A program made the translations under genes and the position numbers. The notes under the pieces were generated by a model. That model had not been told where the DNA came from and searched no databases. It worked only from the letters and a program-made list of their open reading frames with translations. Positions 2,922 to 24,790 of a stretch of 64,000 bases of DNA are shown piece by piece. Every line of letters starts with the position of its first letter. The first letter of the stretch is position 1. This DNA comes from Candidatus Moraniibacteriota bacterium (lineage in GTDB: Bacteria; Patescibacteriota; Minisyncoccia; Moranbacterales; UBA1568): NCBI GenBank assembly GCA_028711705.1, contig JAQTRS010000001.1, positions 201,657 through 265,656 on the forward strand. Direction: 5' to 3'.

Positions 2922-3779
2922 TCAATCCCGAATAATTCCCAATTCCTTAAACCACAATACGGCCTGAGCGACGGGCGCGAAGCTGATGCGATGGATCGGC
3001 GTCGGCCCATAGGTCTTCAGCGCTTCCATATGCACCTTCGTGCCATAGCCCTTGTGTTTCTTGAAGCCGTACTGGGGATACTTTGCATCGTATTCGTTCA
3101 TCATCCGATCACGCGTCACCTTGGCGATAATCGATGCGGCCGCGATGGTCTTGACGATCTTATCGCCGCTCACCACCGTCTCTTGCGGCAAGGAGATATT
3201 GGGAAGTTTCTGATTGCCATCGATCAAAAGCAAAACTTTGCCATTGTCAGGATGACGGTATTGTTGACCCGCCTGCAACGTTTCACGTAGCGATTCGGGC
3301 AGGCTGTTGATTGTTGACTGTTGACTGATGGATCGCCTCAGCGATCCCACCGCTTCCTTCATACCCAAAAACGTCGCCTGCAAGATATTGATCCGATCGA
3401 TAGTTTCGGGATAGATGATTCCCACGCCCACATGGAAGTGCTCCTGTATCAATGCAAACATCTCTTCGCGCTTCTTCTCCGAAATCGTTTTGGAGTCGCG
3501 GATGAATGCGAACTGCTTTTCCAATGCCTCCGGAATCAGGTAATCCTCCCGCTTATAGCACGCCGCCGCAGCCACCACCGGCCCCGCCAGCGGCCCCCGT
3601 CCCGCCTCATCCACGCCCAAAAAAAGCGTCGAGGGATACTTTCGCTTCAGAGCCTGCTCATAGGTAAAATCCGCAAGAGGTGTCGTCATAGGATACAGTA
3701 TAGCATAGCCATCGATTCCCATCCTAAGCAGGTCACCCTGCACGTGGAAGGCCGCATGCAAGAGAGTGTTTTGGCGCAC
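2922..3779 (-). CDS. rnhB: ribonuclease HII
   Basis: GVDEAGRGPLAGPVV catalytic motif and a DSK-containing C-terminal region. Has an in-frame SISQQSTINS insertion encoded by a TTGATTGTTGACTGTTGACTG tract at about 3300-3330. Confidence 0.85.
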   Translation of the reverse strand: MRQNTLLHAAFHVQGDLLRMGIDGYAILYPMTTPLADFTYEQALKRKYPSTLFLGVDEAGRGPLAGPVVAAAACYKREDYLIPEALEKQFAFIRDSKTISEKKREEMFALIQEHFHVGVGIIYPETIDRINILQATFLGMKEAVGSLRRSISQQSTINSLPESLRETLQAGQQYRHPDNGKVLLLIDGNQKLPNISLPQETVVSGDKIVKTIAAASIIAKVTRDRMMNEYDAKYPQYGFKKHKGYGTKVHMEALKTYGPTPIHRISFAPVAQAVLWFKELGIIRD

Positions 3780-4038
3780 GCACTAGCCGGAGTCGCCTTG
3801 TTTTTTTATTCCCTTGCCGCTATACTATAGACAGTAAGGTTGCATAAACTCCCCTGCAGAACCCATGGAGCGATCCGGGCTATGAGGGCAGATATCCTAT
3901 GTTTTCGGTTATTTCTTCCAACTTGGTTTTTACATTGGCCCTTAACCAACTTTTTCAAGGTGGTTTTTTTATGTATCAATCACTGCTACCCACCGATTGT
4001 TTACTGCTCATTGTTGACTGTTAATTGTTTTTTGTTAA

Positions 4039-7000
4039 TTGATTATGTCTTTCACCCATCTCCATGTTCACTCGCACTACAGCCTCCTCACCGCGCCCGC
4101 GAAAATAGAGGATATTTTGGCGCGCTGCAAAGAGCTCGGCATGACATCGGTCGCCCTCACCGACAACAGCAATATGTACGGCGCCGTCGATATCTATGTC
4201 AAAGCCAAAGACACCGGCATCAATGTCATCATCGGCGCTCAGGTCAATGTCTGCAAAGACCTCAATAGCAAGAACAATACCGCCGAAGACCGCCGCCGCT
4301 ACGATCTGGTTCTGCTCGCCAAGAATGAGACGGGCTACAAGAACCTGATGAAGATTATCTCGATCGCGCAGATCGAAGGCTTTTACTATAAGCCGCGCGT
4401 CGACAAGCAGCTCCTCCGGAAGTATCACGAAGGCCTCATCGCCCTCTCCGGATCGATTACCGGCGAAGTCCCCTCGCTCGTCATTATGGGCAACGACACC
4501 CGCGCCCGCGACATCGCCCTCGAATACCAAGACATCTTCGGCAAGGACCATTTTTACCTTGAGATCCAATCGCATCCGGATTACGAAAACCAGCTCCTCG
4601 CCAATGAGGGTCTGATCCAGATTTCCCGCGAGACCGGCATCCCTTTGGTCGCCGCCAACGATGTCCACTACGTCAACAAAGAAGACGCCGAAATCCAAGA
4701 CATCCTCTTGTGCATCCAAAATAACTGGAAAGTGAGCGACGTGAACCGCCTGAGCTTCACCCACCTCGATCTTTCCCTGCGTTCCCCCGAAGAGATGATC
4801 GCGGCCTTCAAAGATACTCCGGAGGCCATCACCAATACCCAGAAAATCGCGGACATGTGCCATGTCAAAATCAGGCTCGGCGAAACGCAGCTGCCGCATT
4901 TCGAAGTGCCGGCCAACTTCAACGCCGAATCCTACCTGCGGCACCTCTGCGAAGAGGGTTTGACCAAACGCTACGGCGAGGCTATCGAACCCAAGCACCG
5001 CGAACGCATGGAATACGAGCTTGGCATCATCGAAAAGACCGGCTTCGCATCCTACTTCCTTATCGTGCAGGACTTCGTCAACTGGGCCAAAAACGCCGGG
5101 GTCATGGTGGGCCCGGGCCGCGGATCGGCCGCCGGGAGCTTCGTCGCCTATCTTACGGGTATCACCAACATGGACCCGATCGAGTACACCCTCCTCTTCG
5201 AGCGATTCCTCAATCCGGAACGTATATCGATGCCCGATGTCGACATGGACTTCGCCGATGATCGCCGCGACGACGTGCTCAACTATGTCCGCGAAAAATA
5301 CGGCCACGATCATGTGGCGCAGATCATCACCTTCGGAACCATGGCCGCGCGCGCCGCTATCCGTGACACCGGCCGCGCCCTGGGATATTCCTATGCCCTC
5401 TGCGACCAGGTCGCCAAGCTCATCCCGATGTTTTCCACCATGAAAGAGGCCCTCGAAGAAGCGGTGGATTTCAAGAAGCTCTATGAATCCGACCCCGAAG
5501 CGCACAAACTCATCGATGTCGCCAAAAACCTCGAAGGTCTCGCCCGTCACGCCTCCATGCACGCCTGCGGCGTCGTGATCACCAAGGACCCCGTCACCGA
5601 ATACACCCCGATCCAAAAGATTTCCGGCTCGCGCGAGGGCATCGTGACCCAGTACGCCTCCTCCACCAAATTCAGCGCCGTGGAAAAGATCGGGCTCCTC
5701 AAGATGGACTTTCTGGGACTCAAAAACCTTACCATCATGCAAAACGCCATCCGCATCATCCGTGCGCTAGGCAAGCTTGACGAACTCATCGAAAGAATCG
5801 GTCTCGATCCGCAAACGGCGTCCATATCGGATATCATGGATCGCCTCCCTATCGATGACGAGAAGACCTATGAGCTCCTCCAAAAAGCGCACACCACCGG
5901 CGTCTTCCAGCTGGAAAGCAATGGTATGAAACGCTATCTGCGCCAACTCAAACCGACCGTCCTCGAAGACATCATCGCCATGGTCGCCCTCTATCGCCCG
6001 GGACCGATGGATTGGATTCCGGATTTCATCGATGGCAAACACGGACGCAAGACCGTCAAATACCTCCACCCGAAACTCGAGCCGATTCTCAGTGCCACCT
6101 ATGGCGTGGCCGTCTATCAGGAACAGGTCATGCAGATCGCCCGGGATCTTGCCGGCTTCACACTCGGCGAAGCTGACGTGCTCCGCAAGGCTATGGGAAA
6201 AAAGATTCTCGAGCTCATTCAGGAGCAGCGCGTCAAATTCGTGGCGCGCTGCGGCGAGCAAGGCATCAGCAAAGAGATCGCCGAGGGTGTCTTCGCCTTC
6301 ATCGAGCCGTTCGCCGGCTACGGATTCAACCGATCCCATGCGGCGTGCTATGCGCTCATCGGCTACCAGACCGCGTACCTGAAGGCGCACTACCCGGCAT
6401 CCTTCATGGCCGCCCTCCTCACCTCCGACCAGGACACGACCGACCGTATCGCCATCGAGGTCAATGAGTGCCGCGAAATGGGTATCGAAGTTTTGCCACC
6501 GGACGTCAACGAAAGTTTCGAGGAATTCGCCGTGGTACCGGATGATGCGGGCACCGAACGCATCCGCTTCGGACTCAATGCTATCAAGAACGTGGGCAAG
6601 GTCGCCGCCGAAGAAATCGTCAAAGAACGCAAACGCGGTGGAAAGTTCCGCTCCATCGCCGATTTCGTCGAACGTGTCCAAACCAAAGACCTCAACAAAA
6701 AATCTCTCGAAGCCCTGTCCAAAGTGGGCGCCCTCGATGCCTTCGGCGAACGCACCCAGATTCTCGCCAGCATCGACAAGATCCTCAAGCACTCCCGCAA
6801 TCTGCAGAAGATCAAAGAAACGCACACCGACAGCCTCTTCGGCCACATGCCTATCGAAACTTCCGAATTGCGCCTCGAAACCGTCCCGCCTATCGACAAG
6901 AAACAAAAGCTCAAATGGGAAAAGGAGCTCCTCGGCCTCTATGTCAGCGATCACCCTGTCAGTGATTTCAAAGAATACTTCGAACAGATCACGGTCCCGA

Positions 7001-7569
7001 TTCATGAATTGGAAAAAAGAGAGGGCGGCGTAAGCGTCAAAGTCGGCGGCGTCATCTCCTCCGTCCGCAAGACCTATACCAAGCGCCAGCAGGAAATGTT
7101 CTTTGTCGGCCTCGAGGACCTGACCGGGCGCGTCGAGGTGCTCGTCTTCCCTCGCGCCGTCGAAAAGACCGGGGGCATGTGGATAGAAGACGAACTCGTC
7201 ATCGTGACCGGCAGGCTCTCCAATGAGGACGGCGTCCCGAAAATCATGGCCGAAGACGCCGAAAAAGTCGACTTGCAATCCGTCGAAACTTTCAAGCGCG
7301 TCCTTTTGACACGAGCAAAAAACGAAAGTCCGCAAGAAGCCGCGCCCCAACTTCCAGACCAGCGACTCGTTATCACCCTCTTAGATGCCGCGATAAGCAA
7401 AAAGCTCCTCGAGACGATCTCCATCACCCTTGCCCATCTTCCGAAAGGCACGCACAAGGTCTATGTCCGCGTCCAAGGCGCCACCATCGAAACCCCGCAT
7501 TCCATCGAGATCACCGAAGAAATAAAAAAACGACTCGCGGAAATTTCCGGAGTCGAAAGCGTCGAGTAA
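4039..7569 (+). CDS. dnaE: DNA polymerase III alpha subunit (PHP domain, polymerase core, OB fold)
   Basis: HLHVHSHYSLL PHP start motif and the full length of 1176 aa typical of DnaE. Confidence 0.95.
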   Translation: MIMSFTHLHVHSHYSLLTAPAKIEDILARCKELGMTSVALTDNSNMYGAVDIYVKAKDTGINVIIGAQVNVCKDLNSKNNTAEDRRRYDLVLLAKNETGYKNLMKIISIAQIEGFYYKPRVDKQLLRKYHEGLIALSGSITGEVPSLVIMGNDTRARDIALEYQDIFGKDHFYLEIQSHPDYENQLLANEGLIQISRETGIPLVAANDVHYVNKEDAEIQDILLCIQNNWKVSDVNRLSFTHLDLSLRSPEEMIAAFKDTPEAITNTQKIADMCHVKIRLGETQLPHFEVPANFNAESYLRHLCEEGLTKRYGEAIEPKHRERMEYELGIIEKTGFASYFLIVQDFVNWAKNAGVMVGPGRGSAAGSFVAYLTGITNMDPIEYTLLFERFLNPERISMPDVDMDFADDRRDDVLNYVREKYGHDHVAQIITFGTMAARAAIRDTGRALGYSYALCDQVAKLIPMFSTMKEALEEAVDFKKLYESDPEAHKLIDVAKNLEGLARHASMHACGVVITKDPVTEYTPIQKISGSREGIVTQYASSTKFSAVEKIGLLKMDFLGLKNLTIMQNAIRIIRALGKLDELIERIGLDPQTASISDIMDRLPIDDEKTYELLQKAHTTGVFQLESNGMKRYLRQLKPTVLEDIIAMVALYRPGPMDWIPDFIDGKHGRKTVKYLHPKLEPILSATYGVAVYQEQVMQIARDLAGFTLGEADVLRKAMGKKILELIQEQRVKFVARCGEQGISKEIAEGVFAFIEPFAGYGFNRSHAACYALIGYQTAYLKAHYPASFMAALLTSDQDTTDRIAIEVNECREMGIEVLPPDVNESFEEFAVVPDDAGTERIRFGLNAIKNVGKVAAEEIVKERKRGGKFRSIADFVERVQTKDLNKKSLEALSKVGALDAFGERTQILASIDKILKHSRNLQKIKETHTDSLFGHMPIETSELRLETVPPIDKKQKLKWEKELLGLYVSDHPVSDFKEYFEQITVPIHELEKREGGVSVKVGGVISSVRKTYTKRQQEMFFVGLEDLTGRVEVLVFPRAVEKTGGMWIEDELVIVTGRLSNEDGVPKIMAEDAEKVDLQSVETFKRVLLTRAKNESPQEAAPQLPDQRLVITLLDAAISKKLLETISITLAHLPKGTHKVYVRVQGATIETPHSIEITEEIKKRLAEISGVESVE

Positions 7570-7631
7570 TTATCACCTCACAAGATATGTCATTTCGAGC
7601 TTGTCGAGAAATCTTCTTTAATCATGCATAG

Positions 7632-7658
7632 ATCCCTCGACTACGCTCGGGATGACAA
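7632..7658. repeat. 27-bp repeat GATCCCTCGACTACGCTCGGGATGACA (copy 1), just upstream of a terminator
   Basis: 25 of 27 positions identical to 16551-16577. Confidence 0.6.
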
Positions 7659-7678
7659 ATACAAATTTTCAAGTATTG

Positions 7679-7719
7679 TAAAAGCCGGGCTGTTGTTCCA
7701 TTGAACATCCCGGCTTTAA
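7679..7719. terminator. bidirectional intrinsic terminator between convergent dnaE and cassette A
   Basis: AAAAGCCGGG...CCCGGCTTT stem with an A-tract on one side and a T-tract on the other. Confidence 0.7.
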
Positions 7720-7720
7720 G

Positions 7721-8125
7721 CTACAAACAATACTTTCTGATATCCTCCATCATGTCAGAGAAAGCTACAAACAACATCCAGGTCGCTATCAATAATGTCA
7801 TAACACCAAGAATTGCAGCGGGAGCTGCTCCTAAAATAGGCCAAACAATCAACCATGGCACCAATAAGGTAGCTGCTGCGGTTACACCCCTCACACCGGG
7901 AACGGATCGTCCATTTGCAAGAAGAAGACCAATCCGGAATAACATCACTACGAATGTCATAATCGGTAATACTATTGCCGACCATACCCATCCACCCGTA
8001 TAACAAGAATATCCGGTCATCGCCAGCAGACCGAGGAATACGATCTTAAATATGAGCGAGATCACCTTGTGATATTTTACAAAAAACAATTTTTTATCTG
8101 TTACGCTATTCATATTATCCACCAT
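7721..8125 (-). CDS. hypothetical small membrane protein (cassette A, 3-4 TM helices)
   Basis: 134-aa ORF with hydrophobic helices. Has its own consensus promoter and terminator. Lower GC than its neighbours. Confidence 0.5.
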   Translation of the reverse strand: MVDNMNSVTDKKLFFVKYHKVISLIFKIVFLGLLAMTGYSCYTGGWVWSAIVLPIMTFVVMLFRIGLLLANGRSVPGVRGVTAAATLLVPWLIVWPILGAAPAAILGVMTLLIATWMLFVAFSDMMEDIRKYCL

Positions 8126-8202
8126 TTTTTAAAAGGGCCGTTTCAGGCCAGTAAGCAAGCACGCCCCAACGGCACTGCCTGCATTTCTAACCTGAACGGT
8201 GT

Positions 8203-8231
8203 ATGATAGCATACTATGCGAGAATTGTCAA
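8203..8231 (-). promoter_or_regulatory. consensus sigma-70 promoter of cassette A (TTGACA-17-TATCAT), part of a conserved roughly 80-bp leader module
   Basis: -35 TTGACA at 8226-8231 and -10 at 8203-8208. The module CCTGCATTTCTAACCTGAACGGTGTATGATAGCATACTATG is duplicated at 9372-9412 and in diverged form at 8775-8815. Confidence 0.65.
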
Positions 8232-8251
8232 TATGAAGTTTCGGGTATTGT

Positions 8252-8288
8252 AAAAGCCGTCCTGTCGTTATTCTGACGGAGCGGCTTT
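8252..8288 (-). terminator. intrinsic terminator of cassette B
   Basis: AAAAGCCGTCC...GGAGCGGCTTT hairpin followed by a U-tract on the minus strand. Confidence 0.6.
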
Positions 8289-8304
8289 CGTATCTTTATT
8301 GCGG

Positions 8305-8715
8305 CTAGAAAACTTCGAATTTCCAAGTGCCATGTTTCAGGTAATAATCGATAGCACGGTTGAAGACTTCTTCCACGCGATCCATGGTGATATACTCATT
8401 ATCAACAGCTTCTTTTAAGGAAATATCCCTTTGCTCATTGAATATATGCACCTTCATACACCATACATCATCAAGCGATGCCAGATGCGAAAAATTGAAT
8501 TGAATCTTCCCTTTCTGATTTTTCGCATCCGCAAGCGTCAATAATCCGAAATTCCTGAAGAAATTTATCTTGCGATGCAACGGCACCGTATTTCTCACCT
8601 CCCCCATATATCGCTTTATTTCGCGCAACTGCTTATACTGCCTGAGTGTAAACCAGCACAGAAGAAGCGTGAAAATAACCAGTCCTGCAAACATACTATT
8701 CAAATCTAACACCAT
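8305..8715 (-). CDS. hypothetical protein (cassette B): N-terminal TM helix plus a roughly 100-aa domain paralogous to cassette C
   Basis: Start trimmed to MVLDLNS (rc ATG at 8713-8715) with a GAGGAA RBS. The longer ORF-track start would run through the gene's own promoter. The protein aligns with cassette C (RNTVPLHRKINFFRNFGL vs RDTAPLYHKLNFCYSLGL). Confidence 0.5.
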   Translation of the reverse strand: MVLDLNSMFAGLVIFTLLLCWFTLRQYKQLREIKRYMGEVRNTVPLHRKINFFRNFGLLTLADAKNQKGKIQFNFSHLASLDDVWCMKVHIFNEQRDISLKEAVDNEYITMDRVEEVFNRAIDYYLKHGTWKFEVF

Positions 8716-8806
8716 GGTGGCAATTCCTCTTCGATTGTTAATATTCAAACCCAGTCGGCAACCACCTCTCATTGAGAAACGCTTGCATTTCTGGCCTGGA
8801 TAGTCT

Positions 8807-8835
8807 ACTATAGCTTGATATGAACACCCTGTCAA
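8807..8835 (-). promoter_or_regulatory. consensus sigma-70 promoter of cassette B (TTGACA-17-TATAGT)
   Basis: -35 at 8830-8835 and -10 at 8807-8812, followed by the conserved leader motif AGAAATGCA. Confidence 0.6.
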
Positions 8836-8886
8836 TACAGCCAAAACCACATCAAGTTTTCAAGAATTAGATTTTCAGGTTGTTTA

Positions 8887-8924
8887 AAAGCCGATGCATC
8901 AATATTCCGATGCTCCGGCTTTTA
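8887..8924 (-). terminator. intrinsic terminator of cassette C
   Basis: AAAAGCCGATGCATC...GATGCTCCGGCTTTT hairpin. Confidence 0.6.
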
Positions 8925-8936
8925 TACTACATTCTT

Positions 8937-9293
8937 TCAACCCCATTGAAAGTCTTGCAAATAACGTCCTATGGCCATATTCACGGCCAATGCCACTTCA
9001 TCGATATTTATAGCGCCTCTCTTTTGTAGGTATTCCAATGTGGAACTTTGAATCACACTTATATTATCCTGAAAATCGATAAGGACAGCAACGCAAGAAA
9101 GGCTGCAATGAGATTCGAACCCTTTTAGTGTGAGCTGTATTGTACTGCCATCACTCGACACATATTCCAATTCCCTCAGACCCAAGCTGTAACAAAAGTT
9201 TAGCTTATGGTACAATGGGGCGGTATCCCGCATATTGCTTATGCGCTCCCTAACGGTTGCTAGTCGCACATCGTCATTAACACACTTTTCCAT
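8937..9293 (-). CDS. hypothetical soluble protein (cassette C), paralog of the cassette B domain
   Basis: 118-aa ORF with a GAGAGG RBS and its own promoter and terminator. Confidence 0.5.
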   Translation of the reverse strand: MEKCVNDDVRLATVRERISNMRDTAPLYHKLNFCYSLGLRELEYVSSDGSTIQLTLKGFESHCSLSCVAVLIDFQDNISVIQSSTLEYLQKRGAINIDEVALAVNMAIGRYLQDFQWG

Positions 9294-9345
9294 CCTGGTT
9301 ACCTCTCATTTAATTTGTAAAGAGCCTTATTTCAGGCCAGTGAAC

Positions 9346-9375
9346 AGGTGTTTTCTTGCAATTAAGAAAACACCT
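9346..9375. promoter_or_regulatory. perfect 12-bp-arm palindrome AGGTGTTTTCTT-GCAATT-AAGAAAACACCT in the cassette C leader
   Basis: Exact inverted repeat located between the promoter and RBS of cassette C. It could act as an operator or an RNA hairpin. Confidence 0.5.
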
Positions 9376-9397
9376 GCATTTCTAACCTGAACGGTGT

Positions 9398-9426
9398 ATG
9401 ATAGCATACTATGGAACAACCGTCAA
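9398..9426 (-). promoter_or_regulatory. sigma-70 promoter of cassette C (TTGACG-17-TATCAT); it shares a palindromic -10 (TATGATA) with the plus-strand miaA promoter
   Basis: -35 lies inside miaA codons 4-6. The plus-strand TATGAT sits 8 nt upstream of the miaA ATG, giving a leaderless-type start. Confidence 0.55.
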
Positions 9427-10316
9427 CGCAGCCAAAACCGCATCGGATACTGGCTATCGTCGGGCCGACGGCTTCGGGAAAATCTTCCCTCGCCATCGAA
9501 TTGGCCAAGAAATACGATGGCGAAATCATCTCCGCGGACAGTCGGCAGATTTATCGCGGGATGGATATCGGGACAGGCAAGGTCACTCCTGAAGAACAGA
9601 CTCTTGCCAAGCATCACCTCATCGATATTCGCGAACCGAGCGAGGACTACAATGTCACGGATTTCAAAAGAGATGCAGCGACGCTTATCGAAGATATTCA
9701 AAGCAGAGGCAAACTCCCTATCATTTGCGGAGGTACGCTCTTTTGGGTTCAATCACTCATAGACAATCAATCCTTTCCTGCCGTCCCGCCTAATCCGAAA
9801 CTTCGATCGGAGCTTGCGCCCCTTTCTTGCGAAATACTCTTTCAAAAACTACAAGCCTTGGATCCGAAGCGAGCCGAAACCATCGACGCCAAGAATCCCA
9901 TCAGGCTTATCCGTGCCATCGAAATCGCCACCGCCATCGGATCGGTTCCGGCACTGACGCAAACGAAACCTAATGAGAATTATTTCATCATCGCCCTCAA
10001 CCCGCCCAAAGAAATCCTCGATGCGAACATAAAAAAACGCCTGGAGGAACGCTTCAACGAAGGGATGATCGACGAGGTCCGCAACCTGAATACGCAAGGC
10101 ATATCCTGGGAAAGGCTGGAGGGATTCGGCCTGGAATACCGCTGGATAGCCCTGTTCCTACAGGGAAAAATAGACGAGCCAGCCATGAAAGAAAAACTCC
10201 GCTTCAACATCATACACTACGCCAAGCGCCAGCTCACCTGGCTGCGCCGATGGGAAAAACAGGGCGTGGATATCCGCTGGATACGAAGCGCTTCAGAAAT
10301 AGATCTGCTGTTTTAA
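9411..10316 (+). CDS. miaA: tRNA dimethylallyltransferase
   Basis: ILAIVGPTASGKS P-loop and DSRQIYRGMDIGTGK motif. Confidence 0.9.
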   Translation: MEQPSTQPKPHRILAIVGPTASGKSSLAIELAKKYDGEIISADSRQIYRGMDIGTGKVTPEEQTLAKHHLIDIREPSEDYNVTDFKRDAATLIEDIQSRGKLPIICGGTLFWVQSLIDNQSFPAVPPNPKLRSELAPLSCEILFQKLQALDPKRAETIDAKNPIRLIRAIEIATAIGSVPALTQTKPNENYFIIALNPPKEILDANIKKRLEERFNEGMIDEVRNLNTQGISWERLEGFGLEYRWIALFLQGKIDEPAMKEKLRFNIIHYAKRQLTWLRRWEKQGVDIRWIRSASEIDLLF

Positions 10317-10324
10317 AAACAAAA

Positions 10325-10357
10325 GGCGTCATGGAGATATCTCGTATCTCCGACGCC
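10325..10357 (+). terminator. putative miaA terminator hairpin (GGCGTC..GGAGATA-TCTCG-TATCTCC..GACGCC)
   Basis: Nested 6+7 bp stem followed by a weak U-rich stretch. Confidence 0.45.
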
Positions 10358-10705
10358 ATCGAGTTTCTTGTTCTGTGTCTTACACAGGTCAAAAAAAGAA
10401 ATCTTATTTAAGCGCACTGCGCCTCATGAGTATATGCTGCCAGCATCGCCAAGACCGCTGGCCCGTATCTATGCGTATCGAGTTTCGCATTTTTAACTTC
10501 AGCATAACACACTAACTCACCTTCGGGTGTGATCCCGCAAAGATGCCCGAGAGGGATATTGATAAGACATCGCGAACATTGTCCGAGAGTCTCTGAATTT
10601 TGGAATTTATGCGCATGGCAAGAAATGCCTGCATTCTCCGGATCTGTATATTGGTGACACATAAATAAATGTCCTCTGTAAGTTGTTAAGAAACAAGTAC
10701 GAAAA

Positions 10706-10733
10706 TCGGCTCAAAAAAAATCACCCACAAGGG
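10706..10733 (-). terminator. intrinsic terminator (ATCACCC-ACAA-GGGTGAT stem)
   Basis: Hairpin plus a U8 tract when read on the minus strand. The stem has the same sequence as the terminator at 16517-16535. Confidence 0.6.
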
Positions 10734-10906
10734 TGATCACATCACTTTAGAGAAACTGCCAAAATGTTGAGCTTGATTTTCATTAGTTCTAAGTATACTC
10801 CTCTCAAAACATCTGTCAAATAAAATATGAGGAGCCCGTATTGTAGTTCAATACAAGCTCCCGATCGCTTTTTCCGTATGTACTAACTATACGGGATTTT
10901 TGCTGG

Positions 10907-11086
10907 CTATATCTTCGCTGGGTGATCGCGTCGATATTCAAAACTTTCTTCAGTCGTTTTATTCAAGGCGTATTCTACGCCCATATTGGAGTTATCTTCG
11001 GATTGCGCTCCGTTGTTTTTAAAAACTTTAAAAACGAGGAAAAAGACAACCGCTAACACTAGTACTAAACCTACATCTACAACCAT
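10907..11086 (-). CDS. hypothetical 59-aa small membrane protein
   Basis: MVVDVGLVLVLAVVFFLVF TM helix. AAGGAGAG Shine-Dalgarno 6 nt upstream of the ATG. Lies downstream of gatB. Confidence 0.45.
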   Translation of the reverse strand: MVVDVGLVLVLAVVFFLVFKVFKNNGAQSEDNSNMGVEYALNKTTEESFEYRRDHPAKI

Positions 11087-11240
11087 GACACTCTCCTTTT
11101 TTGTTTTTTGATAGTTATATAACTTGATCGCCACTCCATATTGGCACCATATCGTCATTTTGTCAAGGGTTGTCAACAAATACATACCAAAAAAACCGCC
11201 CTTCGGAGTGAAAGGCGGTTTTGACTTCGACAGGTCTCCT

Positions 11241-14863: not shown

Positions 14864-15781
14864 TTATACTGCTATCGGCGCATTAATGGCATCATGCGAT
14901 TGATATCCTTCCAAAGTAAAATCCTCAACTTTGAAATCAAAGATATCTTTCACATCCGGATTGAGCTTCATGATTGGGAGAGAATATGGCGTACGCGTCA
15001 ATTGCAGAGCGACCTGATCCATGTGATTGCTATACAGATGCACATCACCACCCGTCCATACAAAATCCCCGACCTTAAGATCGCACACCTGAGCCATCAT
15101 CATCGTAAGCAGTGCGTACGAGGCGATATTGAAAGGTACGCCCAAAAAAGTATCACAACTTCTCTGGTACAACTGACATGAAAGTTTTCCATCCGCCACA
15201 TAAAACTGAAAAAAACAGTGACAGGGTGGCAAACCAGACTTAGCCATCTCATCGATATCCGCCACATTCCAGGCAGAGACAATCATTCTTCGCGAATCAG
15301 GCGATTTCTTGATCTGATCGATCACCTGAGTGATCTGATCAATATGACGACCATCAGGTGTCGGCCAACTCCTCCACTGATACCCATACACTGGGCCAAG
15401 CTCGCCATACTTGCGAGCAAAATCATTATCAGCTTTTATCTTTTTGATAAACGCAGCGATACCATCCCTCCACTCGTCAGAATCCTCCCGAGGCACCTTT
15501 TGTCCCATTGATTGCACATGCGCCTTATATGGCCAAGCATCCCAAATATGCACATTTCTATCTGCAAGGTATTTGATATTCGTATCGCCTTTCAAAAACC
15601 AGATAAGCTCCTCGATAATCCCTCGAATAAACATTTTCTTCGTCGTTACCAAGGGAAACCCTTGTGACAAATCAAATCGAGTTTGATAGCCAAAAACACT
15701 CCTGGTTCCCGTTCCGGTTCGATCCCCTTTTATCACGCCTTCTTCTGAAATTTTATGGAGAAGATCTAAATACTGTTTCAT
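14864..15781 (-). CDS. thyA: thymidylate synthase (ThyA, long form)
   Basis: [32 protein letters not shown]...[10 protein letters not shown] motifs. The Asn in PFNIAS indicates dUMP specificity. Confidence 0.92.
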
Positions 15782-16550: not shown

Positions 16551-16577
16551 GATCCCTCGACTAGACTCGGGATGACA
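16551..16577. repeat. 27-bp repeat GATCCCTCGACTAGACTCGGGATGACA (copy 2), in the opposite orientation relative to its upstream gene
   Basis: 25 of 27 positions identical to 7632-7658. Also sits next to a terminator. Confidence 0.6.
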
Positions 16578-24470: not shown

Positions 24471-24728
24471 ATGACCTACTATACCTACATTTTGGAAAAT
24501 GTGATCGGAAACGTATACATAGGACAGACGAATAATCTTAAGAATAGATTAGCGCGCCACAACGGAAACCGCGTCAAATCAACCAAAAATAAAGGTCCTT
24601 GGCATATAATCTTTTCAAAAGAACATCCTACGAGAAGTGAGTCGATGCGACATGAAACATACTTGAAATCTCTCAGAAATTCTGCTTATATAAGGAGAGT
24701 GATTATAGGAGACGATACTGGGGAGTAG
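24471..24728 (+). CDS. small GIY-YIG nuclease-family protein (YhbQ/UPF0213-like, catalytic domain only)
   Basis: YTYILENVIGNVYIGQTNNLKNRLARHN GIY-YIG motif. Possible upstream GTG/ATG starts at 24426/24456 lie inside the tRNA-like fragment. The 3' end overlaps the tRNA-Gln start by 10 nt. About 38% GC. Confidence 0.65.
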   Translation: MTYYTYILENVIGNVYIGQTNNLKNRLARHNGNRVKSTKNKGPWHIIFSKEHPTRSESMRHETYLKSLRNSAYIRRVIIGDDTGE

Positions 24729-24790
24729 CCAAGCGGTAAGGCAGGGGCCTTTGAAGCCCCCATGCGAAGGTTCGATCCCTTCCTCCCCAA
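24719..24790 (+). tRNA. tRNA-Gln (anticodon UUG)
   Basis: Hand-folded cloverleaf: acceptor TGGGGAG/CTCCCCA, D arm GCC-AAGCGGTAA-GGC as in E. coli tRNA-Gln, anticodon stem GGGGC/GCCCC with loop CTTTGAA, T arm GAAGG-TTCGATC-CCTTC. CCA is not encoded. Confidence 0.85.

Follow-up and report, generated by a model that had tools for sequence, protein, structure and literature searches.

Candidate phyla radiation (CPR)/Patescibacteria genomes are small, and unannotated small proteins make up a large share of their genes. Stem-loops that stabilise an mRNA from its 5′ end are known from the E. coli ompA leader and from the B. subtilis aprE and ermC leaders. The locus described here lies in a 64,000-nucleotide stretch of contig JAQTRS010000001.1 of a Candidatus Moraniibacteriota bacterium (the window, meaning the whole stretch analysed), in which the plus-strand genes dnaE (4039-7569) and miaA (9411-10316) enclose three small open reading frames (ORFs) on the minus strand, A, B, and C. 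Each of the three units, or cassettes, has the same anatomy: a near-consensus sigma-70 promoter, a 5′ hairpin of 57 to 64 nt, a small ORF, and a putative terminator consisting of a hairpin and four U residues (Table 1).

Arrays of tandemly duplicated orphan genes (ORFans) with atypical composition are a known kind, to which this locus belongs; what is unusual is the shared module of promoter and 5′ hairpin, which is possibly functional. As in other tandemly duplicated ORFan arrays, the units stand head to tail, a truncated 5′ end of the neighboring gene remains at a junction, the products are paralogous, the composition is atypical, and sister species lack the array. It differs from them in that the regulatory flanks (75 to 91% nucleotide identity) are much better kept than the coding parts (28% amino acid identity or unrelated) and in that, in one unit, the shared promoter and hairpin precede an unrelated ORF. 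The likeness to the ompA, aprE, and ermC leaders lies in a stable hairpin a few nucleotides from the predicted 5′ end, upstream of an exposed ribosome-binding site (RBS), with a free distal sequence; the cassette hairpin, however, is far longer than needed at 57 to 64 nt, and its conserved internal loop hints at specific recognition. The explanation that we favor, with a probability of about 55%, is that the locus is a young accessory array of one Moranbacteria lineage that grew between dnaE and miaA by tandem segmental duplication and consists of independent units, each with a 5′ stem-loop.

Table 1. Features of the cassettes between dnaE and miaA (window coordinates; TM, transmembrane; pLDDT, predicted local distance difference test score; z, folding energy relative to dinucleotide shuffles).
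Feature	Position	Strand	Remarks
Cassette A terminator	7677..7717	-	Hairpin + UUUUAC; -18.5 kcal/mol; inverted repeat I3
ORF A	7721..8113	-	130 aa (134 aa with start at 8125); polytopic membrane protein (predicted)
Cassette A leader hairpin	8140..8197	-	-31.3 kcal/mol; z -5.06; covariance model 72 bits
Cassette A promoter	8203..8231	-	TTGACA-17-TATCAT; TG-extended; 11/12
Cassette B terminator	8248..8289	-	Hairpin + UUUUAC; -17.9 kcal/mol
ORF B	8305..8715	-	136 aa; N-terminal TM helix + ~100-aa alpha/beta domain (predicted); model pLDDT 82
Cassette B leader hairpin	8743..8801	-	z -2.25; covariance model 65 bits; distal P2 different
Cassette B promoter	8807..8835	-	TTGACA-17-TATAGT; 11/12
miaA remnant, codons 1-12 (ATGAACACCCTGTCAATACAGCCAAAACCACATC)	8820..8853	+	34 nt, upstream of cassette B; repeat D2, alignment A6
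Cassette C terminator	8875..8930	-	Hairpin + UUUUAAAC; -23.7 kcal/mol; inverted repeat I1
ORF C	8937..9293	-	118 aa; soluble protein paralogous to the B domain; preceded by a GAGAGG RBS
Cassette C leader hairpin	9329..9392	-	-33.9 kcal/mol; z -8.75; covariance model 70 bits
Cassette C promoter	9398..9426	-	TTGACG-17-TATCAT; TG-extended -10; 10/12

The evidence for duplication came from a comparison of the units by repeat search and pairwise blastn. The units follow one another head to tail at 572 to 634 bp (repeat families D1 to D4), and similarity between them is restricted to their ends. Cassettes A and C share 90.7% identity across a 54-nt stretch (8178-8231 in A, 9373-9426 in C), from the -35 element through the base of the distal helix of the hairpin (P2), and are identical from the -10 element on; they are 88% identical over a further 17 nt that form the 3′ strand of the basal helix (P1), while the intervening 25 to 30 nt and the ORFs are unalignable. 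The module of B is 65 to 75% identical to those of A and C, with 75% identity to C over 78 nt. The initial annotation had described a shared promoter-leader module, nearly identical in A and C and diverged in B, and these values agree with it. The ORFs of B and C are alike at the protein level only, without DNA similarity (28% identity across 109 residues; E, 5e-11). Furthermore, a remnant of the start of miaA reads ATGAACACCCTGTCAATACAGCCAAAACCACATC upstream of B, against ATGGAACAACCGTCAACGCAGCCAAAACCGCATC in miaA itself. Because of this 34-nt remnant, and because the -35 element of C lies inside miaA codons 4 to 6, the duplicated unit must have included the miaA start, and the remnant is the mark of a tandem segmental duplication, produced by slippage or unequal crossing-over, and not of an inserted cassette. 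The array thus combines D1-D4 spacing, the miaA remnant, and paralogous B and C genes, with the unrelated ORF A as the exception. At A, the flank is preserved only as far as the -35 element, and the A module is closer to that of C than to that of the adjacent B. A later nonadjacent copy or gene conversion is therefore indicated, with the tract ending inside P2, where the similarity between A and C is lost abruptly. The module reuse that had earlier been put down to shuffling of cassettes has a simpler origin in tandem duplication that copied the miaA start, followed by the later A/C copying or conversion.

The array is also an insertion at its site. The nearest relatives found in a miaA scan, with one genome per species, were 54 to 60% identical, and in two of them (L005 and L006) dnaE ends 60 to 140 bp before miaA with nothing between. 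Since the two genes are only ~60 to 140 bp apart in the closest species, the extra DNA in the window was gained. A related Moraniibacteriota metagenome-assembled genome (MAG; L041) carries a different gene at the same junction, a plus-strand orphan ORF of 236 aa (3486-4196) that had no match in NCBIfam or PHROGs. A contig from the Joint Genome Institute (JGI; L002) has a B-like gene, then a Zn-ribbon ORF, and then a terminator of the cassette A type that directly adjoins the dnaE end. A contig from run SRR22315508 (L003) has a TM-anchored ORF of 148 aa, a B-like gene, and a Zn-ribbon ORF with operon-like spacing, and these are followed by a terminator and then by a consensus promoter with a diverged leader. 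The 148-aa ORF has a TM-plus-domain layout like that of B and no detectable homology to B or C, and the Zn-ribbon ORF matched only itself in the homologue search. The content of the junction thus differs among close relatives, which suggests that it repeatedly takes in new genes, and the earlier view that this is not a standard operon but an accessory, lineage-variable locus is borne out by the adjacent dnaE and miaA genes in L005 and L006 and by the other content in L041, L002, and L003. A promoter and leader of its own on every gene was seen only in the organism of the window.

The B-like gene of L003 has an in-frame TAG at 558-560, where B has AAG (Lys), and the gene caller split it into products of 86 and 75 aa; the codon reflects either a pseudogene or a sequencing error, and the ratio of nonsynonymous to synonymous substitutions (dN/dS) over the remainder is still 0.18. 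Outside the window, the locus had a single exact copy, L001, a 1.2-kb Logan contig from the same run as L003. Both of its ends (1-20 and 1195-1214) lie inside the repeated module of promoter and leader, so this repeat breaks short-read assembly, and the copy number of cassettes in MAGs of this clade may be underreported. In total, the locus was seen in one 323-kb contig and three short contigs of one narrow lineage.

The differing content at one junction recalls integron cassette arrays, which likewise have small ORFs in series with imperfect palindromes between them at one chromosomal site and vary in content between relatives. Mobile gene cassettes, integron-like or otherwise site specific, with the hairpin and terminator palindromes as recombination sites, would also fit the conserved palindromes that bound each unit and the abrupt end of the A/C similarity within the hairpin. 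However, on direct reading the leader and terminator palindromes lack the attC cores RYYYAAC and GTTRRRY, the array has no integrase or recombinase gene next to it, and each unit has its own promoter (10 to 11 of 12 consensus positions) and its own terminator, unlike integron cassettes. In addition, the window has no further copy of the module, and the miaA remnant at the junction upstream of B is the kind of trace that replication slippage or unequal crossing-over leaves, unlike excision and insertion at specific sites. This explanation was accordingly considered very improbable, the least credible of those weighed.

The base composition of the array sets it apart from its surroundings. Its GC content is 0.40 to 0.45, against 0.50 to 0.59 in dnaE, miaA, and gatB, as had been noted from the sequence at the outset; the GC content at third codon positions is 0.43 to 0.49 in the array ORFs and 0.63 to 0.74 in the long genes of the window, and the codon usage of the array is atypical.

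The promoter scan placed all three near-perfect promoters exactly where they had first been described. Near-consensus promoters are common in the 64 kb, with 27 sites matching at least 10 of 12 positions versus ~10 in shuffled sequences, so promoter quality alone is unremarkable. The -35 element of the cassette C promoter falls within miaA codons 4 to 6, and the window miaA has about five additional N-terminal residues, whose codons encode this -35 element. The minus-strand TATCAT (9403-9398) overlaps a plus-strand TATGAT (9397-9402) by 5 bp, with -11A and -7T paired reciprocally, and the plus-strand TATGAT is located 8 nt upstream of the miaA ATG. Thus, cassette C and miaA seem to share a bidirectional promoter, of which the cassette C promoter is one half. 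The plus-strand transcription start site (TSS) is predicted at or next to the miaA ATG, so that the miaA mRNA would probably be leaderless; relatives L005 and L041 have TGGCATACT-N6-ATG at the miaA start, which is leaderless-like too. Reciprocal -10 overlap with TSSs 18 bp apart is the commonest bidirectional geometry in bacteria as summarised in PMC10268837 (Warman et al. 2021), and the -10 overlap at 9397-9403 likewise predicts TSSs ~18 bp apart. Compared with the promoters covered in that summary, the geometry here is read from sequence alone, the plus-strand partner has no -35 element and would serve a leaderless miaA, and the whole bidirectional core has been duplicated twice.

Downstream of every ORF lies a hairpin (-18 to -24 kcal/mol) that runs into CUUUUA, and the flanks of these putative terminators, AAAGCCG...CGGCTTTTACAATAC, are kept in all three cassettes and in relatives L002 and L003. 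The initial annotation had assigned a hairpin-plus-U terminator to every gene; the U tract has just four U residues, below the scan threshold of five T in eight, which is why the scan listed none of the three.

The leaders share a fold that starts ~7 nt past each -10 element and consists of a 10-bp P1 (UUCAGGUUAG / CUGGCCUGAA), an internal loop, and P2. The 5′ side of the loop is AAAU and the 3′ side is UUA, UCA, or CGA; in cassette C, P1 has 10 bp, the loop is AAAU/UCA, and P2 has 14 bp. P2 starts as GCARG...CYUGC, after which its distal sequence and length differ from copy to copy and cannot be aligned, yet it is helical in three of three. In a hand-checked alignment of the leaders, 94% of the pair cells held standard pairs, versus 19 to 59% when the partners were slid. 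Four pairs were altered on both sides, and P1 of B shows U-G to C-G and G-C to G-U replacements relative to the other two leaders. When 20 near-consensus promoters in the window were examined, a long two-helix hairpin was found behind none outside the cassettes; comparable fold scores at two other promoters, 14892 (z -3.6) and 30389 (z -2.4), belonged to shorter, different hairpins, of which the one at 14892 is terminator-like. No pairing of the RBS by the leader hairpin was predicted, and a U tract follows the hairpin only in A, so there is no conserved logic of attenuation or RBS sequestration. Two candidate identities for parts of the hairpin were rejected: a K-turn or loop-E/sarcin-ricin internal loop, by eye, as the tandem GA and AGUA/GAA signatures are absent, and a DNA operator formed by P2 as an inverted repeat, as the three P2 sequences are unrelated.

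A new cis-regulatory RNA, either a riboswitch or a protein-responsive attenuator in which P1 and the internal loop (AGAAAUGC / ACUGG) sense a signal and gate the three genes, would explain why P1 and the loop are conserved while the distal P2 varies freely and why the hairpin is specific to the cassette promoters. An alternative pairing of the P1 3′ strand (GGCCUGAA) is open to A and C, in a weak GGCC...GGCC/GGCU stem followed by CUUU (family D5), but that stem is just 4 bp long and B lacks it. Sequestration of the RBS is not predicted, the associated genes point to no ligand, and an internal loop of 3 to 4 nt per side is too small for most aptamers. At gathering thresholds, Rfam left the leaders unmatched and found only a tRNA in the window (24719-24790); at E values up to 5, it returned nothing for them beyond chance matches to microRNA-precursor models (E, 0.3 to 5; 18 to 22 bits versus gathering scores of 80 to 100). 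Copies of the module elsewhere did not turn up: no further copy was found in the 64-kb window, and a covariance model of the three leaders recovered only its training copies from the window and 14 related loci (196 kb). A looser pattern scan of viral contigs gave 70 matches, all of them folded, and none of the 25 best-folding ones, which were inspected, convincingly had the leader architecture; the 70 were taken as chance matches, mostly in coding-like context. A pattern scan of JGI metagenomes gave seven matches, all in unrelated high-GC contexts, and none was accepted as a copy. When the array was compared by distant blastn with collections of phage and plasmid DNA, nothing matched. As no copy was found elsewhere, comparative support for a conserved RNA structure is confined to three paralogous copies in one genome, and a sensing or gating RNA of this type was judged unlikely.

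Among unrelated high-GC soil and peat contigs, hairpins with a P1, AAAU, GCARG-P2 layout were observed in L138 (3216-3272), L140 (9088-9144, minus strand), and L134 (1206-1248). The search pattern partly forces this likeness, the L140 hairpin has an unrelated gene upstream of it, cytochrome-oxidase-like by sequence, and the three hairpins were judged to be chance occurrences.

All three ORFs are preceded by a purine-rich RBS at proper spacing, and their products differ as first described, with A a multispanning membrane protein, B an anchored domain, and C the same domain unanchored, according to hydrophobicity and to the B/C homology given above. Hydrophobic stretches at residues 14-38, 39-68, and 76-122 suggest that A has about four TM helices; B has one TM segment, at its N terminus, and C has none. 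The N terminus of B is acidic and the helix is followed by the basic stretch RQYKQLREIKR, so by the positive-inside rule the ~100-aa domain would face the cytoplasm. NCBI lists B as [quoted passage not shown] Purifying selection shows that B is a real gene. Its homologues, three matches that all fall within one narrow clade, are conserved at 59 to 73% identity, with dN/dS of 0.18 versus L003 and 0.14 versus L002, values at which the earlier description of the locus as hypervariable fails for B. An exact look-up of the NCBI-annotated B protein turned up no other assembly on record. For C, the annotated frame scores best in codon analysis, and the protein matched only itself among 1.84 billion representatives; in ~2 to 6 billion proteins, no relatives of A, and none of C besides B, were detectable. 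Residues 31-56 of C are 48% identical to a 27-residue motif, NFCY..(x)..FVSSDGSPLNL, that occurs four times (residues 34-59, 235-261, 437-463, and 639-665) in P0005, a 1680-aa Bacteroidota-type surface protein with type IX secretion system (T9SS) and PKD features; this resemblance was judged spurious and too short for homology.

Profile searches of A, B, and C against Pfam, NCBIfam, PHROGs, PADLOC, and PDB sequences gave nothing above threshold (no family with E < 0.01 above its curated cutoff). The best family match was LapA_dom, at 14.9 bits versus a cutoff of 28, over the TM helix. Fold searches found no fold match, and the structure model of C (pLDDT 65) was too poor for one. These searches thus assigned no family and no fold to the three proteins, and the suggestion of a toxin/immunity or surface-effector array, made in the initial annotation, drew no signal from any of them. 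A conflict system, toxin/immunity or antiphage, composed of membrane protein A, its anchored partner B, and the soluble paralogous partner C, would suit a small, fast-evolving, low-GC accessory island at a variable locus that encodes membrane and small soluble proteins, each gene being independently and strongly promoted. Nevertheless, B is under ordinary purifying selection and kept across three organisms, nuclease, protease, and NTPase (nucleoside triphosphatase) domains are not present, and neither the family and defense-system searches nor the phage and plasmid comparisons gave a match. Such a system was regarded as improbable.

The course of events in the favored explanation would be as follows. 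A founding unit would have been transcribed divergently from miaA, its -10 element sharing 5 bp with the plus-strand -10 element and its -35 element lying in the first miaA codons. Duplication would then have copied this whole unit, from the promoter through the leader and gene to the terminator, along with the initial 34 nt of miaA, and produced the paralogues C and B, and a later copying event or gene conversion would have set a C-type promoter and hairpin base before the unrelated membrane-protein ORF A. Every unit would be an independent, strongly promoted, monocistronic transcription unit, with the 5′ end of its transcript at or a few nucleotides from the base of a long hairpin comprising the conserved P1, the internal loop, and the variable P2. 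This 5′-terminal stem-loop would protect the mRNA from 5′-end-dependent decay. It may also be a shared binding site for one factor, such that three small envelope-associated or cytoplasmic proteins would be expressed strongly and coordinately. A stabilising role is the most likely one, because the hairpin neither sequesters the RBS nor forms a conserved terminator, and it fits a 5′ stabiliser since it lies at the extreme predicted 5′ end, is independent of the RBS, and tolerates any distal sequence. Stabilisation of the mRNA or binding of a shared factor is thus the probable function of the hairpin; the conserved internal loop leaves room for such a factor. A more specific proposal is that the hairpin of P1 and internal loop is a cis-acting RNA handle not described before, to which a protein or a small ligand binds, and that a Moranbacteria lineage attached it, with the duplicated half of a bidirectional housekeeping promoter, to small genes that were newly born or newly acquired; we consider this unlikely.

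Several observations weigh against the favored explanation. The TSSs are predictions from the -10 positions, and the plus-strand miaA promoter, which has no recognisable -35 element, was not called by the promoter scan. The covariation score of the leaders was equalled by 23 of 500 shuffles; with only three paralogous copies such statistics are weak, and the conservation of the leaders may just reflect recent copying. The diverged leader of L003 folds insignificantly (z -0.3) and is missed by the covariance model, so interspecies conservation of the structure is not demonstrable. Furthermore, the annotated frame of A only ties with another frame in codon scoring, and A matched nothing but itself in the homologue search, which leaves the coding evidence for A weak.

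These last points would be expected if some of the ORFs, especially A, were not genes and the units were noncoding duplicates that derive from the divergent half of the miaA promoter and yield small RNAs or nothing. That A and C lack homologues outside the array, that the frame of A does not beat the best alternative, and that codon usage is atypical would all follow. However, all three units combine a properly spaced RBS with an open frame of 118 to 136 codons at ~42% GC, B is demonstrably coding and C is its protein-level paralogue, and A encodes regular hydrophobic segments of TM length. Noncoding duplicates were therefore thought improbable. None of the rivals to tandem duplication of stem-loop-led genes (riboswitch or attenuator, toxin/immunity system, mobile cassettes, or noncoding duplicates) has positive support beyond general context.

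The genes around the array are, by appearance, those for RNase HII, dnaE, miaA, and gatB. The miaA-gatB spacer (10320-11240) is also GC poor (0.385) and has more small minus-strand orphan ORFs, including one for an 84-aa Cys/His-rich protein at 10408-10662 and one for a TM peptide inside 10907-11185; a consensus promoter (10819-10792) and, near 10715-10745, a hairpin-U8 terminator are also present. The ORFs of this spacer had no match in Pfam. Self-contained small orphan units may be general in the intergenic gaps of this genome. Between the dnaE stop codon and the cassette A terminator lies a palindromic element of ~76 nt (GTCATCCCGAGCGTAGTCGAGGGATC...TCTCGACAAGCTCGAAATGAC) at 7585-7660 (-32 kcal/mol; z -4.2). 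It is not present at the equivalent junction of L002, has a subthreshold Rfam match to AaHKsRNA41 (36 bits versus a gathering score of 97), and recurs as a half-copy at 16551-16576, after another gene. The element looks like a repeat of the miniature inverted-repeat transposable element (MITE) or repetitive extragenic palindromic (REP) type.

The general significance of the array is limited, because the locus belongs to one narrow lineage and is known from few contigs, and because its proteins have no assigned function here. Within that scope, it is a clean, datable example of small genes arising and gaining expression: a divergent promoter over the start of a housekeeping gene was duplicated with a 5′ hairpin and a terminator, and the payloads diverged (B and C) or were replaced (A). 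Were the hairpin an RNA handle as proposed above, the module would serve as a portable "expression module" with which a reduced CPR genome tries out orphan genes at high expression. If the hairpin is truly regulatory or stabilising, it would provide a compact, portable expression module for organisms that have almost no genetic tools.

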